A stretch of DNA of 63,696 nucleotides, filler included, from Globobulimina sp. (taxonomy: Eukaryota): assembly GCA_003354225.1 (NCBI GenBank). It is 41 parts of 41 records of this genome, joined end to end, with 100 filler letters (N's around TTAATTAATTAA, not from the genome) between each part and the next. Parts side by side here need not be neighbours in the genome. Positions count along the whole stretch, not along the records: positions 17,130 to 18,585 come from PIVH01016371.1; 40 more parts are not named here. One strand, written 5' to 3'. Both the position numbers and the translations under genes were made by a program. The first letter of the stretch is position 1. Each line of letters starts with the position of its first letter. Positions 6,233 through 20,141 of this stretch are shown here, piece after piece. The notes under the pieces are model-generated. The model did not search any database and had not been told where the DNA came from. It saw only the letters and a list, made by a program, of their open reading frames with translations.

Positions 6233-7479
6233 GGACCCTCAAGTCGGCAAAACAACCTTTTTAACCAAACATTTGAATGGTTCATTTAATGCATCCTATA
6301 ATGCAACAATCGGTGCATCCACATTCCATCTCCAATTTAATACAAAGTTACATACAAATATATATTATATATTATATATCTATACACATCAAACCTACAT
6401 AAATAATATAATCCAGTTTATCCTGTCATAATTACGAAGTGTTTGATGTAGCGGGCCAGAATTTATTCGCAGGCAAACGAGACAAATATTATAAAGACAT
6501 AGACGGAGCCCTCATTATGTACGACGTGATGAACTGGAGCAGCTATGACAATGTTTGCGATGTTTGGTTAAAAGAATTGGTGCATCACAAGAAAGGACCC
6601 AATGTGATCCCAATCTGTATCGTTGGCAATAAAATGGAGAATCGGGATATCCGTAAAGTGTCCGTCGAAGTGGTCGCGGAAGCCATATCGCAAAAATTTG
6701 AACCGCGCGGTGTTGGATATTGTGAGATTTCGGTGAAAACCAATCAAAATTTAGCTGAACCTTTCTTATTTTTGACGAAAAGGATATTAAATATTAATGA
6801 CAGCAAAGCATTATATTTTGTGAGTAAAATCTCTGAAACTTATTTAATTGAATCTATGTTGGAACAAAAAAAAAACAAAGACGAACAAGATAAAAAAAGT
6901 AGCGCCGTGGCGGTGGATTCCACACCAAAGAATTTAGAAAATTTATTTTTGAACACCGACGCCGATATAAATATCAATATAAATGATGCCAATGATGCGG
7001 CGAAGGGTGGTGACTATTTGGATGATTTTATATTTTCACTCGAGACGAATAAAAAAGTAAATGAACAGAAAGCGACTGAGCCGTCCATTAATTCGCTATC
7101 TATTGGCGATGACGATACTTTTTTAGCGGATATGATGGGGAATCAACCAATAAAAAAACCAAAAGTTCTAAAAACAAAATCGGTTTCGGCGACAAAAACG
7201 TTGCCGCAAAATAATGTGAATGCGACACAAAAACAAGCAGCTCGGGACCGAGCAAGCAGTGTTGGTAAAAAAAGTGCGATTGCTGCAAAACCAGCTAAGA
7301 GTAAAGTACATGCACAACAGTCGAGGGCAAAAAATAAAGCTATTCCACAGAAACCACAGCAAGACAATGGTGTTATGATTGAAATATTGTTGGGGATTCA
7401 AGAGACTCTCAATAATTTACAATTGGATGTTCGTAAATTGCAAAATGATGTTTCTTACTTAAAATCACAACGAAAATGA
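6233..7479 (+). CDS. Divergent Ran-like small GTPase with long C-terminal extension (5' truncated)
   Basis: Exon 1 DPQVGKTTFLTKHLNGSF..YNATIG; intron 6347-6416; DVAGQNLFAGKRDKYY, GNKME, EISVK, and EPFLFL, which matches the Ran EKPFLWL segment. Confidence 0.8.
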
Positions 7480-15592: not shown

Positions 15593-16822
15593 TCACATAC
15601 TACCTACCTTAAGTTGCTCAAATCCAGATTTCAATAAAGCCACTTCACCGTCATACTGCTCCTTCATATCATTCATCTTCTCCATCAAAACTAATTTACC
15701 ATTCGTTAAACTCGCAATCTTTTCATTCAATCTGCTTTCCTGCTTCGTAGCTTCCAACTGAATCCTCTGAATCTCCGTCTTTTGTTCCTCCGCTAAATAT
15801 CTCATTTCAGAGTCAATATGAACGTTATGCATGGTACTAAAATCCAACTGCAACCCACCACGCTGCCCTTTCAGTTGTTTCTTTTTCCATTCTGCAGCAT
15901 ACATATCCCTCAACGCAATCTTCCTTAAATTTTCCAACCGTCGTTGAAAATTGTTCAAATGGATGCCTTTCACCGACAAATTGTTCATTAACATGTTTGA
16001 GTCCACGTCAAATAACAGCATACCACCACCAATCTTCTCATCAAAGAAACGTTTCATACAATAGCTGAAACCTAATATATTCCCCACCCAATATGCCACC
16101 TCATATTTATCCCAATGTTCTGCGTTGACTTCGTCACAAAATTTGTGCCCGTTGCTGTTGCAGGTTTTTCTTTTGAGCAATTCTTCTTGAAACAATGCAT
16201 CCGATTCAATCTGTTGCAATTCGTTCTGTACCATCAGCCCCAATTGTCGTTTCATCGCTGCTTCTTCAGATTCGGTGAATGATATTGCTTCCAATCTAGC
16301 ATTTGGGTGGATATTGGTGCTAAATTTAGGTGAGATAATGCGTAGTAATTCTTCCTGATATGATTGTAATGTGGGTTGGTTGTAATATTTTTGTAATAAA
16401 AAATCGCCGAAGTTTACTTTATCGATGTATTGATCAGAGGAGGTGCCATCAGTGGAGTTGATTAATTTAAATAGTTTCTGTATTCGAGTTTTGCTCATAT
16501 TTAGTCCTAAATTCTTCAGTGCGTTTGTAAATTCTTGTATATCTATATCACCGTTATCGTCTTTGTCGAAATGTTCTGAGAATACGGTCTCAACCAATTC
16601 TTTGAGTTGTGTTGGGGTGTATTTACTGAAACAATATGCAGTTATTTGTCGATCTAATGCAGGAGGTGCCGGTGCGGTGAGATTCTCATTTGATGATGAT
16701 TTCTTATCATCATCTTGCTCGTTAACCTCGTTTGAGCCAAAATCGTCAGGACCACCTGGTGTTACATATTTTGATGCCATATGTGATACGTTACGAACAT
16801 GTTCAACATTTTGATTCTGCAT
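15593..16822 (-). CDS. EF-hand + SAM domain + coiled-coil protein (probably continues past an intron)
   Basis: EF loop DKDDNGDIDIQEF plus a degenerate second EF; SAM WDKYEVAYWV..FFDEKIGGGMLL..GIHL; heptad-rich tail; GTAGGT donor near 15608. Confidence 0.8.
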   Translation of the reverse strand: MQNQNVEHVRNVSHMASKYVTPGGPDDFGSNEVNEQDDDKKSSSNENLTAPAPPALDRQITAYCFSKYTPTQLKELVETVFSEHFDKDDNGDIDIQEFTNALKNLGLNMSKTRIQKLFKLINSTDGTSSDQYIDKVNFGDFLLQKYYNQPTLQSYQEELLRIISPKFSTNIHPNARLEAISFTESEEAAMKRQLGLMVQNELQQIESDALFQEELLKRKTCNSNGHKFCDEVNAEHWDKYEVAYWVGNILGFSYCMKRFFDEKIGGGMLLFDVDSNMLMNNLSVKGIHLNNFQRRLENLRKIALRDMYAAEWKKKQLKGQRGGLQLDFSTMHNVHIDSEMRYLAEEQKTEIQRIQLEATKQESRLNEKIASLTNGKLVLMEKMNDMKEQYDGEVALLKSGFEQLKVGSM

Positions 16823-17129
16823 TTTAACTTTGGCGTTTTGGAAAAAAAGTATGCAATCCAAAGCCAAGATAACTTTAATATATCGTGTCAAAGCTGATTA
16901 GAAAAACGTAGTAAGTAGATATTAAATGCTCTAAACAAAAAAAAAATATAAGAAGTGACAAGAACCAATTAATGCAATAAGAATAAATGAAAGAACAAAA
17001 AAAATGATAAAATAAATCATATAAATATANNNNNNNNNNNNNNNNNNNNNNNNNNNNNNNNNNNNNNNNNNNNTTAATTAATTAANNNNNNNNNNNNNNN
17101 NNNNNNNNNNNNNNNNNNNNNNNNNNNNN

Positions 17130-18584
17130 TATATTTGTTAATATAATTAAGCAGCAATACACGCGCAGTGTATAAAAACATTCACTTTCATCATTTTCTA
17201 TATTGATAAACTTGTCATATTTTTCACCATCATTTCCATATAAAAATCGATCACATTCATCATAATACGATATATTTACTGATAGTATTCCATCATCAAT
17301 CCTTTTATAATTATTTGCCACACTCAATTCTTTTATAAATAAAATACGTCCTTTCTCCTCTCCATCACTGTCAAATGATAATTTTAACAAACTTAAACAA
17401 CATAAAATTTCATTAATACTCGATGTTGCAAACAATATCCATTTTGATAAAAATTCCAACCCGCTGTTACAGGTACTTTTTCCCTCATTTTTCAATAAAT
17501 ATTCAGCAAAATCACACCAGAAAAGGTTAACTTTGATGAAATTCTTTCTTTTCTCATCATATTTTATACCAAACCAATATGTTTCTTGATATTCTTTGGT
17601 TGCATCCAATTCTTGATACAATTGCATCAATTGACTATTTTTCCCATTTATATTTTTATCATTTACCTGTATTATTCGTGCCGATGAACGTGCGCCTAAA
17701 ACGCCTCTATGATAAGAACTTGTAATGGTTCTAAACCTTTCCTGTCCCGCGGTGTCCCATAACTGTAACTTAACTTTTTTATTATTCACACTGTTGGTTT
17801 TTATTCGAAAATCGACACCGATGGTTGATATAAAACTTGTTGTAAATGAATCGTCAGAATATCTTAATAAAATACATGATTTCCCAACACCTGAACTTCC
17901 AAACATTAATACCTTAAATAAATGATCATAACTTTTATTTCTTTGATTTTTATTTTGCTGCTGCTTATACTCAGTTTGTGGTGGATGTGTTAATAAAATA
18001 TTTCTTTGTATATCGTCAAATACATTATTTACATTTGTGCCAACTTTTGCTGATGTTTCATAAAATATCCTCAAACCATATTTATTTGCCATGACACGAC
18101 CTTGTTTTGCACTCACTTTACGTTGATTTTGCAAATCACATTTATTTCCAACTAAAGCTGCTTCTGTCGAATCATGCAAAATGCGGCTCAAGTCATCTTC
18201 TAAATATTCAAGTGACTGTAAATCGGTAATATCATAAATAAAAACTGCACCAAATCGTTTGGATGGCTTAGATGGATCGTAATAAAGTGGTGGAAGCACC
18301 GCAGCTGACTCAAACATGGCATCATCTGCCTCATCATCAGAGGCACAAATTTTTTCCTCCTCTTCATCGATATCTTCATTTAATTGTTTCTCTGTTAATG
18401 CAGTACGGAATAATTTATCCAATTTCTGTGGGTTTATTTTTGTTTTTTGTTGGTGTTTTTGAAAATATTTCAGTGCCCTGGCTCGTAAATTAATATTTTG
18501 TTTTAACGCCCATAAAATACAAATATCATAACCATTTGGATGTTGATCATGGTCACAATGAAATACTTTATCGTTTCTTGTTAT
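17130..18584 (-). CDS. Multidomain protein containing a circularly permuted Rab-like GTPase domain (open at both contig ends)
   Basis: One frame is open across the whole contig. Motif order is NKCD (G4), ETSAK (G5), GSSGVGKS (G1), T-IGVDF (G2/RabF1), [19 protein letters not shown] (G3/RabF3-F4). Confidence 0.85.
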
Positions 18585-18762
18585 TNNNNNNNNNNNNNNN
18601 NNNNNNNNNNNNNNNNNNNNNNNNNNNNNTTAATTAATTAANNNNNNNNNNNNNNNNNNNNNNNNNNNNNNNNNNNNNNNNNNNNTTCGAAAAATATTTC
18701 ACTTTGGGATTTTTATCAATACGCTTCCGGATTTCAAGACTGTTTAAACCTCACAGAACAAA

Positions 18763-20141
18763 TCACCATTGTTTACTGTTCCAATCACCAAGAAATATGT
18801 CATTGTTCTCGTTAAATCTAGCAAGTAATTGATTAATTTGAAGAGTAACAGGTTCATAATATTGTGTCAATTTCTCTTTGATATCTTGTGGTATTGGCAA
18901 TGTTTCATGTTTCTGATGTGGTAAATTAATATTTTCCCAAATATCCATATGTCTATTTTTAAATTTCTCAATATCGCAAATCTTCCCCTCACTCCAACAA
19001 GTCATTAAATACAACGCTTCTTTTGGTTGATTTATAACATAATTAAACGCCATAAATCTAAACTTTAGACCCAACAAATTTGTCTGTTTAAACACAATAA
19101 GTGGTAATAATAAATGTGGATAACTCAGACCAACAAATAGCATATGAATTGGATGTCGAACATGAATTATATGCTTATATTTTATTTCTTGGTAACTCCA
19201 GTTTTCATCATATAATCCAATATCAATATCTTTGCAGTCCATATCATTATCATTCCAGTGCAACTTATACGCGTTGCACTTTTTAAATAACCTCGAAAAT
19301 CCATAGAAAAATTTAAAGTATTCATTCAAAATAACAATATCATCATATTCCACACTTCTGTTTATAACCATATTTCTAAACTGCTCCAAAGGTTTATAAC
19401 GCAGCGATACATTCAATTGATACCGAATTAAATCAAAAACTGCATTTTGATCCGTACCGAATGCATTGACAAACTTTTTAATATAAAATAAGGAGTACCA
19501 TGAAATTGTTCGTTTGACGGAACTCCGAAGTAATATTAATACGTTTGTCCCATATTGGTTTAGCTTATAATTTATAGGCGATATATAATAGGCAAATATT
19601 ATAGGAATATAAGGTGAATAATAATGAGCCGGCGTTTTGACGATAACTAACATATTATTCTTATATTTGGAGGCATTGATTATGTCCGAAAATACAGAAT
19701 TTTGTTTATTTACTTGTTTTTCAATGATATATGGTTGTAATAATAATAAAATCTCATAAAATGGATATTGTTCAAGCGTTTGAATGGATTTATTTTCACT
19801 TATATTATAATGTAAATAATTAACTAATTTTTGGAAATAATAGTCTTTCTTTGAGGAACCAAAATAATTTTCAGTTAAAAAAGTAGTCCAAATTTGTGGA
19901 TACTCACGGAATGGTTTATGTGTTTCTGGCTGGTACCAATTTGGAAAACTCTCCGCTAATCCGGTGTAAATAGAGGTTGTGGATGTTTTTGCTGGACCAA
20001 AAATCCATAATGCTGGGATTGTGTACGATACATTTCGTGGTTTGGTGTGTATTGATAGGTTTGGCTGCTGCCGAATAATTGGGATTAGAGTTTTGGATAA
20101 TGTCGACTCTGCAGAGTTGAACACAACCAACAGTAGGCCAT
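18763..20141 (-). CDS. P-loop sulfotransferase (heparan-sulfate ST-like fold; 5' truncated)
   Basis: 5'-PSB-like IFGPAKTSTTSIY, 3'-PB-like LLRSSVKRTISWY, and C-terminal LTQYYEP..QINQLL. Confidence 0.8.

Follow-up and report, generated by a model that had tools for sequence, protein, structure and literature searches.

The window analysed here, a stretch of 63,696 nucleotides from the genome assembly of Globobulimina sp. (GenBank GCA_003354225.1), consists of 41 unlinked contigs of 1455-1458 bases each, which are ordered by size and separated by 40 identical 100-base linkers (N44-TTAATTAATTAA-N44). Because the contigs were joined artificially, genes that are adjacent in the window are not genomic neighbours. 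The linkers carry stops in all six frames, and any feature that crosses one of them is spurious. The G+C content is about 30% all along. This report concerns one assembly contig of 1456 bases (PIVH01016371.1; 17130-18585), flanked by two of the artificial linkers, whose minus strand carries a single frame open at both ends. The frame, P0001, comprises 485 codons (17130-18584, minus strand) and encodes a Rab-type GTPase domain whose two halves stand in exchanged order, set between two parts of what appears to be a much larger host protein. P0001 contains no stop codon, compared with 19-64 in the other five frames, and the probability of zero stops at the same base composition is about 1.6e-20. 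An earlier reading of this DNA made without database searches, referred to below as the sequence-only reading, had described the frame as uninterrupted, and this held over all 485 codons.

Motif order, sequence affinity and predicted fold

The Pfam model PF00071 (Ras) matched P0001 in two stretches, with an overall E value of 5.7e-46. Residues 112-197 corresponded to profile positions 74-161 (E 9.8e-19) and residues 224-298 to positions 1-75 (E 3.3e-27), which are the two partial matches in reversed order that the sequence-only reading had anticipated. The two halves were complementary to within two profile positions and together held all five G motifs in the order G4-G5-G1-G2-G3, in agreement with its view that they add up to one complete domain. 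Each of the five motifs is canonical: NKCD (G4, residues 147-150), SAK (G5, 178-180), GSSGVGKS (G1, 229-236), the threonine of STIGVDF (G2, 253-259) and DTAGQ (G3, 277-281), the last with its catalytic glutamine kept. YDHLFK (219-224), TIGVDF (254-259), WDTAGQ (276-281), RFRTIT (283-288) and YHRG (291-294) were located as well, and the motifs listed earlier (NKCD, ETSAK, G1, TIGVDF, G3, RFRTIT and YHRG) were all recovered on the minus strand where they had been placed. IGVDF, KLQLW, RFRTIT, YHRG and FIYDIT correspond to the five RabF motifs.

Read along the protein, and thus from high to low coordinates on the minus strand, P0001 includes a part that is conserved in the host family and lies immediately before a variable segment (residues 21-68; 18381-18524), recognized in tblastn by residues 108-154 of P0122 and 1463-1509 of P0127, two relatives described below. 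An acidic linker follows, and after it, weakly indicated, a possible decayed remnant of G3/switch II at residues 87-102 (residues 69-110 in all; 18255-18380). The C-terminal half of the Rab, from beta4 to alpha5, occupies residues 111-200 (17985-18254); it begins with beta4 at residues 111-120, from 18254, and has the RabF5-like FIYDIT, G4 NKCD at 18135-18146 and G5 ETSAK at 18045-18059. A linker rich in glutamine, asparagine and lysine (residues 201-218; 17931-17984) joins alpha5 to the N-terminus of the Rab. The N-terminal half, from beta1 to alpha2, comprises residues 219-298 (17691-17930), with G1 at 17877-17900, the G2 threonine in STIGVDF at 17808-17825, G3 WDTAGQ at 17742-17759 and YHRG at 17703-17714, so that the run of motifs ends at 17703. 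A short linker (residues 299-320; 17625-17690) then leads from switch II/alpha2 to the start of the conserved host core (residues 321-485; 17130-17624).

A Pfam scan gave no GTPase match in residues 1-99 and no match of any kind in residues 299-485; neither flank of the Rab domain holds a P-loop or a G4/G5 motif, in line with the earlier claim of no P-loop upstream and no G4 or G5 downstream, and no von Willebrand factor A (VWA) domain was matched in P0001. The Rab domain is internal, with neither an N-terminal methionine nor a C-terminal CC/CXC motif. After alpha5 the chain continues into G1, and residues 181-236 contain no cysteine, the low-confidence linker included, so the domain lacks a prenylation motif.

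The two halves differ in their affinities. For the G1-G3 half the best match in the PDB was Rab1A (1.4e-36), and the 60 matches listed were all Rab, Ypt or Sec4 proteins; identity to Rab1A is about 75% in an alignment judged by eye, and 59/76 residues are shared with the first domain of P0241, a tandem Rab from foraminifera. The Rab1/Rab8-type character that the sequence-only reading had seen in the RabF motifs is borne out for this half. For the G4-G5 half the best PDB matches were Rab3 (1.6e-12, 51.2 bits) and Rab8A (3.8e-12). An origin of this half from Rab5, as in the relative P0035 described below, was considered and rejected on local pairwise scores, which were 173 for Rab-13, 147 for Rab-8A and 144 for RABE1c, all above the 108 of P0035; a Rab5-like look is confined to the short remnant upstream of the half.

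An AlphaFold2 model of P0001 residues 85-305 packed both halves into one G domain. Its predicted template modelling score (pTM) was 0.71 and its mean predicted local distance difference test value (pLDDT) 71.7, with values above 90 in the G4-G5 half and of 84-88 in beta1/alpha1; the linker between the halves was modelled with low confidence (pLDDT <50). In Foldseek searches with the model, Rabs matched one half at a time and YqeH matched over 190-193 columns. With VIA-align, among the best 50 rows, ranks 1-27 spanned both halves (model residues ~1-22 to 195-205), led by YqeH 3h2y (Z 14.1, 143 residues, root-mean-square deviation (rmsd) 3.1) and YqeH 3ec1 (Z 13.2). The other both-half matches included YjeQ 1u0l and 2yv5, YlqF 1puj (Z 12.2), RbgA 6g0z and 6g15, and chains of pre-60S and mitoribosomal assembly particles, which presumably contain GTPases of the same YRG group. 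The first ordinary Rab stood at rank 28 (Z 10.2) and covered model residues 13-117 only. The structure prediction that the sequence-only reading had proposed thus returned a single G domain with permuted YqeH, YjeQ and YlqF as its best structural matches, and the domain is predicted to have the topology of the known G4-G5-G1-G2-G3 GTPases and the sequence of a Rab. We infer that the two halves probably fold together into one GTP-binding domain.

Independent sequence and constraint

Some of the evidence could be taken to mean that the order of the halves is an artefact, either an assembly chimera or a set of ordinary tandem Rabs or exons whose true splicing is different. The assembly is very fragmented, and the contig measures only 1456 bases; depth at 17718-17766 reached 4683 in run X2, with many loose ends; and one odd contig joint was seen in run X1. 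The depth arises because the WDTAGQE word at this place is common to all Rabs. The stretch is present, wholly or partly, in 7/9 of the public runs listed, from three studies, and four of these (X1, X2, X3 and X6, the last merely guessed to be RNA) were aligned to it. X2, which belongs to a different study and carries a different organism label, yielded one independent contig of 2673 bases that is colinear over 17130-18585, covering every junction, with 20 substitutions and no insertion or deletion. Overlapping X1 and X3 unitigs also tile each junction, and in X6 a contig of 293 bases extends over G5, the linker, G1 and G2 with 11 differences; the parts that X6 left uncovered (11/30 bins) were given no weight. 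The linker at 17931-17984 is bridged by contigs of X1 (17720-18025), X3 (17875-18108), X6 (17806-18098) and X2 (whole).

Against an artefact stand, besides the X2 contig, the absence of a stop in 485 codons, the flanks free of P-loop and G4/G5, and the homology of both flanks, in frame, to the two sides of one and the same site in relatives. The sequence-only reading had itself named chimeric junctions and splicing into an ordinary tandem Rab as the ways in which it could fail. On the first count, sequence from a second study runs through all junctions; on the second, the transcript-derived relative P0148 reads straight from G3 into the core and keeps that junction in frame. Neither an assembly chimera nor a recent foreign insert is likely, and the artefactual interpretation as a whole, which we hold to be highly improbable, is close to refuted.

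The differences among runs point to constraint on the protein. Against X2, the 10 non-synonymous and 10 synonymous differences of the whole frame gave a pN/pS of 0.24 (P 0.002); the Rab part, with 2 non-synonymous and 3 synonymous ones, gave 0.17 (P 0.06), and the linker together with the core gave 0.06. Against X6 the Rab part had a value of 0.15 (3 non-synonymous and 5 synonymous, among 8 of the 11 differences; P 0.011). G+C at third codon positions (GC3) was 0.18-0.26 in the Rab and in its flanks alike, and 0.33 in the 30-codon stretch of the remnant. This agreement in GC3 between the Rab insert and its flanks implies that the insertion is not recent.

The host family and its variable segment

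The regions on either side of the Rab belong to one protein family. P0001 residues 21-91 match residues 108-174 of P0122 (E 3e-11), and residues 321-485 match its residues 322-494 (E 3e-43). The N-terminal module and the C-terminal domain of unknown kind that had been proposed as fusion partners of the Rab are therefore not fusion partners, both being conserved parts of a single family. HMMER searches with residues 299-485 returned 99 relatives at E<=1e-3, many of which are proteins of 2000-2450 amino acids with the match at about residues 1400-1700. The named relatives are EukProt proteins of Nonionella stella and Bolivina argentea and one protein of Reticulomyxa filosa; the rest are metagenome proteins. 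It is mainly through foraminiferal transcriptomes that the family is known. Poly(A) and total-RNA Trinity assemblies of N. stella and B. argentea were made in PMC8153729, and we assume that the EukProt sets of these two species derive from it.

Between the conserved flanks the family varies strongly. In P0127 the same flanks (1463-1509 and 1708-1888) enclose a ubiquitin domain (1536-1607), and a Pfam scan found a foreign domain upstream of the core in 10/34 host-family proteins. The guests comprise a whole Rab7 in P0020 (best PDB match Rab7, 9.6e-55), a permuted Rab5 in P0035, a Rab1-like domain in P0148, Snf7 in P0086, ubiquitin in P0127 and P0133, WW plus MLLE in P0124, SAM in P0126, Pkinase_C in P0147 and, below the cut-off, Synaptobrevin-like stretches in P0122 (214-250, E 0.0012) and P0126. 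Judged by these alignments, the Rab of P0001 is likewise a guest in the hypervariable segment of a giant host protein.

Two relatives bear directly on the permuted domain. P0148 (B. argentea, EukProt, 117 amino acids) reads G1-G2-G3-SSYYRGVLG and then, after a short linker, the host core; 91/121 aligned columns are identical to P0001, and the junction SSY(H/Y)RGVLG, which leads into residues 299-320, is common to both. As P0148 lacks the upstream part, it shows the joint between G3 and the core and not the one between G5, the linker and G1. P0035 (B. argentea, EukProt, 520 amino acids) aligns colinearly with P0001 along 82% of the query. Its residues 36-212 follow Ras profile positions 42-160 and then 1-51, which gives the order G3-G4-G5-G1-G2 in front of the same core, with positions 42-51 present twice, and its best PDB match was Rab5A (7.5e-43). 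P0035 thus seems to carry another permuted Rab of independent origin, and one site of one host family is occupied by two Rabs permuted in different ways.

On the reading that we favour and regard as reasonably probable, P0001 is a genuine piece of a gene from a foraminifer-like protist and holds a complete Rab-type domain, permuted and lodged in the variable segment of a giant protein with a macroglobulin-like core; the domain would fold as a single GTP-binding switch or label. The old N- and C-termini would be tied by the linker of about 18 residues, and the new termini would lie in the exposed alpha2-beta4 loop beside switch II. Switch II would in this way be wired through 22 residues to the host core, and the nucleotide state could pass to the host; comparable coupling to a C-terminal domain has been proposed for YRG proteins. 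The host protein might then use the domain as an internal nucleotide switch or as a docking label of Rab type, and since it has no prenylation cysteines the domain would be unable to take part in the normal Rab cycle on membranes and with the GDP dissociation inhibitor (GDI).

The same evidence was weighed for the contrary view that the Rab halves are decaying filler, inert leftovers of capture that stay in frame because the core needs translating and that keep their motifs because they are young. The strong differences in the variable segment among relatives, with a foreign domain in the 10/34 noted above, would suit such a view, and so would the much greater divergence of the G4-G5 half than of the G1-G3 half. 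However, random fragments would rarely be complementary to within two profile positions, and the permuted Rab of P0035 is also complete. G4 and G5 are perfect inside an otherwise diverged half, the Rab part has a pN/pS of 0.15-0.17, and in the AlphaFold2 model the halves form a single packed domain. The Bolivina transcript preserves the junction and the G1-G3 half at 75% identity, and the GC3 value, equal to that of the flanks, does not suit a young insert. We consider inert filler unlikely, though worth keeping in view.

Several observations weigh against the functional permuted domain that we favour. The gene is cut off at both contig ends, and the protein is known in part only. The exact gene was found in no RNA run among the nine public runs listed, so expression of the P0001 copy rests on the transcript of a relative. 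One contig joint of X1 skips 17337-17995, a length of 659 bases that is not a multiple of three, with ends AA..TA; on its shorter side it is supported by 25 letters, of which 5 are ambiguous, and we read it as a repeat artefact. The substitution counts behind the pN/pS values are small. The alignment behind the structural model had 21 rows, mostly tandem Rabs that align colinearly, and pLDDT fell below 50 at model residues 120-131, 165-171 and 198-221, in the switch regions and the C-terminal helix; in Foldseek, Rab1/8/10 superposed on the G1-G3 half only at an rmsd of 7-9 Å. The G4-G5 half points to no clear subfamily, Rap1b reaching 45.5 bits against 51.2 for Rab3, and it has diverged much further than the G1-G3 half, scoring about 50 bits where that half scores 127 over a comparable length; with such unequal divergence, different histories or unequal constraint may apply to the two halves.

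As to origin, the favoured permuted domain would most simply have begun as a stretch slightly longer than one unit of a head-to-tail Rab repeat, whose redundant end then decayed, and the domains of both P0035 and P0001 look like such stretches. Residues 87-102, before beta4, align with G3/switch II of tandem Rabs, and among the PDB matches of the G4-G5 half only Rab5/Ypt51/Rab22 alignments reach back to about residue 89. In post hoc shuffles the score of this remnant was reached by 20/5000 against P0035 and by 2010/5000 against the second copy in P0001 itself, and a decayed remnant in the second copy of P0035 was not significant (3959/5000 and 3335/5000 shuffles reached the score). The tandem duplication and trimming put forward in the sequence-only reading is thus weakly backed by the comparison with P0035 and not by that with P0001's own second copy. 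An origin by duplication and decay is weakly suggested by these alignments, and a genomic tandem duplication and a captured concatemeric copy would both be compatible with them.

Head-to-tail tandem Rabs align colinearly to the G4-G5-linker-G1-G3 arrangement and occur in foraminiferal transcriptomes, and such repeats are plausible raw material for a permutation. An insert cut from a tandem Rab of the P0240/P0241 type was rejected, as the Rab1/8-like unit of P0241 is its first domain and a piece from mid-gene mismatches. Beside this, P0240 and P0241 have an unusual membrane-anchored Rab architecture, in which a long stretch, multi-pass transmembrane as judged by eye, comes after two canonical tandem Rabs; in P0302 one Rab lies between transmembrane-looking regions, and all three are foraminiferal EukProt proteins of 892-1036 amino acids.

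The contig end cuts the core of P0001 just where a macroglobulin-like beta-sandwich starts. The fold of the core was therefore predicted with AlphaFold2 on the host relative P0145, from an alignment of 57 sequences of the family. This model, with a mean pLDDT of 84.5, has a helical part and then a beta-sandwich at residues 130-260; its top Foldseek matches were cobra venom factor and complement C3c (E 1e-7). In VIA-align the sandwich superposed on the Salmonella alpha-2-macroglobulin (A2M) 4u4j with a Z of 11.5 (116 residues, rmsd 2.4) and on complement C3/C4/C5 with Z 10.5-11, and the unrelated TRAP-beta (Z 10.8) and dextranase (Z 10.4) came within 1 Z of A2M. In Atlas the family lay beside hypothetical proteins of Planctomycetota and Verrucomicrobiota (0.95-0.97), the MG2/A2M families scoring 0.77-0.81. 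The CxEQ thioester motif occurred in 0/20 host-family members; some bacterial A2Ms are also without the thioester. A2M/MG2 models gave no match in the host family (Pfam; NCBIfam on 5 members), no Pfam or NCBIfam model matched the core, and P0164 had no PDB sequence match besides a chance one (E 0.21). By eye, 18/20 host-family N-termini are unlike signal peptides. The fold of the host core is thus predicted to be macroglobulin-like.

This prediction, together with the nature of the guests, raises the idea that the host is an intracellular macroglobulin-like guard, with its variable segment serving as bait, assembled from copies of trafficking proteins that are targets of intracellular bacteria; the permuted Rab would present authentic switch surfaces and yet stay outside the normal Rab cycle. 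Alpha-2-macroglobulins carry a variable bait region, and plant nucleotide-binding leucine-rich repeat receptors (NLRs) carry integrated decoys. The range of guests (Rab1/8, Rab5, Rab7, ubiquitin, an R-SNARE, ESCRT-III), the match of the sandwich to Salmonella A2M and to C3/C4/C5 with the Atlas scores of MG2/A2M, and the Rab without prenylation cysteines would fit this idea, and many of the matching Rab1 structures are, by their entry titles, complexes with bacterial effectors. On the other side, no member has CxEQ and no A2M model matches; the sandwich match is tied within 1 Z with TRAP-beta and dextranase, the Atlas scores are below 0.9, and nothing ties the host family to infection. We regard a decoy role as improbable. 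Put in full, the proposal would be a foraminiferal family of giant cytosolic macroglobulin-like proteins with a bait of bacterially targeted trafficking proteins, the permuted Rabs being decoys that were made at least twice at one site, possibly from concatemeric or circular-template Rab messages; in this form too it is a long shot. If true, protists would have in this family an equivalent of the decoys that are integrated into immune receptors of plants.

Further members of the family were noted in passing. Proteins of about 2000-2100 amino acids (P0156, P0161, P0164, P0166 and others) lie on metagenome contigs of up to 112,793 bases, P0161 and P0166 have signal-peptide-like starts, and the family may span bacteria and foraminifera. 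P0122 and P0123, both from N. stella, are identical in their N- and C-terminal thirds and differ in the core middle; alleles, close paralogues and assembly mosaics are all conceivable.

Elsewhere in the window, the contigs on either side of P0001, which are unrelated to it, carry long open frames on the minus strand at 15593-16891 (432 amino acids) and 18763-20130 (455 amino acids), the former with an EF-hand-like DKDDNGDIDIQEF stretch. A divergent small-GTPase fragment lies on the plus strand at 6243-6792, in the contig at 6233-7690; it was found by tblastn in two pieces (6243-6347 and 6436-6792) with the Rab7-like P0020 and with P0035 and P0241 as queries, and there is possibly a short intron between them.

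Comparison with described GTPases and macroglobulins

It was argued earlier that the structure of the GTPase fold permits only the order found in the YRG group. In PMC2430557 (Elias and Novotny 2008), from which the following background is taken, circular permutation of this fold is described for two groups only, YRG and cpRAS. YRG proteins have the order G4-G5-G1-G2-G3 and no connection between strand 3 and helix 2; cpRAS proteins, of the RAS family, have the order G3-G4-G5-G1-G2, a TIE motif and a break between strands 2 and 3. Most cpRAS domains are paired with a VWA domain there, and in DdiCPRas2 of Dictyostelium the permuted domain lies inside a giant protein of the COG2373/alpha-2-macroglobulin-like type with bacterial relatives. 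A small-GTPase survey of 2026 (PMC13393502) still cites cpRAS as the permuted member of the Ras superfamily.

The domain in P0001 could, in principle, belong to one of these groups and represent no new permutation. Its motif order is that of YRG, YRG members are its best structural matches, and its host is a large macroglobulin-like protein, as is that of DdiCPRas2 by the account just cited. By sequence, though, it is a Rab, with Rab1A at 1.4e-36 and nothing but Rab, Ypt and Sec4 among the matches listed for the G1-G3 half, and the Pfam models expected for YRG stayed below their cut-offs in P0001 (PF01926 MMR_HSR1 19.5 against 21.9 bits; PF03193 RsgA_GTPase 18.4 against 30). Order and G2 differ from those of cpRAS, and the break after helix 2 is unlike that described for YRG. 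Membership of either group is scarcely credible, and on the strength of these sequence features the domain is, in our judgement, a member of neither. The independent permutation proposed in the sequence-only reading stands in so far as motif order and G2 differ from cpRAS and the sequence is of Rab type with Rabs as best matches. No permuted Rab was found in the literature on circularly permuted GTPases, the Ras superfamily and foraminiferal Rabs, subscription journals lying outside the scope of that search. The domain would accordingly count as a third natural permutation type of the small-GTPase fold, of apparently independent origin, and as the first found for a Rab in the literature searched.

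One database entry was considered as a precedent and rejected: P0318 of Pelomyxa schiedti is named 'circularly permutated Ras protein 1', and its Rab1-like domain is in canonical order. That domain precedes a cysteine-rich region, and the name seems to have been transferred from the part that is not a GTPase. Such database names do not, then, show permutation. Other matches of about 870-1020 amino acids with VWA-type families (PF13519) came up alongside P0318.

With its break between helix 2 and strand 4, P0001 would form, together with P0035 and its break in the cpRAS loop, a natural series of break points in one fold, and the two may show intermediates of a route by duplication and decay. 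After DdiCPRas2, P0001 would also be a second case in which a macroglobulin-like giant protein harbours a permuted small GTPase. In cell biology, the findings draw attention to a large and unstudied foraminiferal family that gathers trafficking domains in one variable segment; for protein engineering, they would offer a ready-made permuted Rab with switch II tied to a neighbouring domain.

Among known systems, canonical Rab1/Rab8 proteins share the five canonical G motifs and the five RabF-type motifs with the domain in P0001. They are small proteins in the order G1-G5, whereas the domain in P0001 lies within a large protein and has its halves swapped, a strongly diverged C-terminal half and no prenylation motif. 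In tandem-Rab proteins (P0240/P0241, the rotifer P0002 and others, and Entamoeba EhRabX3, PDB 5c1t) each domain is complete and in canonical order. The cpRAS proteins have, by the description in PMC2430557, a RAS-family TIE at G2 and their break between strands 2 and 3, whereas P0001 has a Rab1/8-type STIGVDF and breaks between helix 2 and strand 4; P0035 shares with cpRAS the order G3-G4-G5-G1-G2 and is a Rab5 by sequence.

The YRG proteins (YqeH, YjeQ/RsgA, YlqF/RbgA and Nog2-type) have the same motif order as the domain in P0001 and gave the best both-half structural matches of its model (Z 11.2-14.1, ranks 1-26, 127-155 aligned residues), at identities of 13-24% in the structural alignments. 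As described in the same source, they break between strand 3 and helix 2, whereas in P0001 helix 2 remains in the half that holds G3 and the break falls in the loop leading from helix 2 to strand 4. By the literature on them, YRG proteins are ancient ribosome-assembly factors, and the P0001 domain is an insert in a lineage-restricted giant protein. The predicted sandwich of the host core superposes on MG domains of the A2M/complement C3 superfamily, with other sandwiches within 1 Z, while the thioester and the sequence models of that superfamily were not matched in the host. The host of DdiCPRas2, by its description, and that of P0001, by its predicted fold, would both be macroglobulin-like giants, and in YRG proteins as in P0001, G3/switch II stands at the C-terminal end of the G domain and adjoins the next domain.

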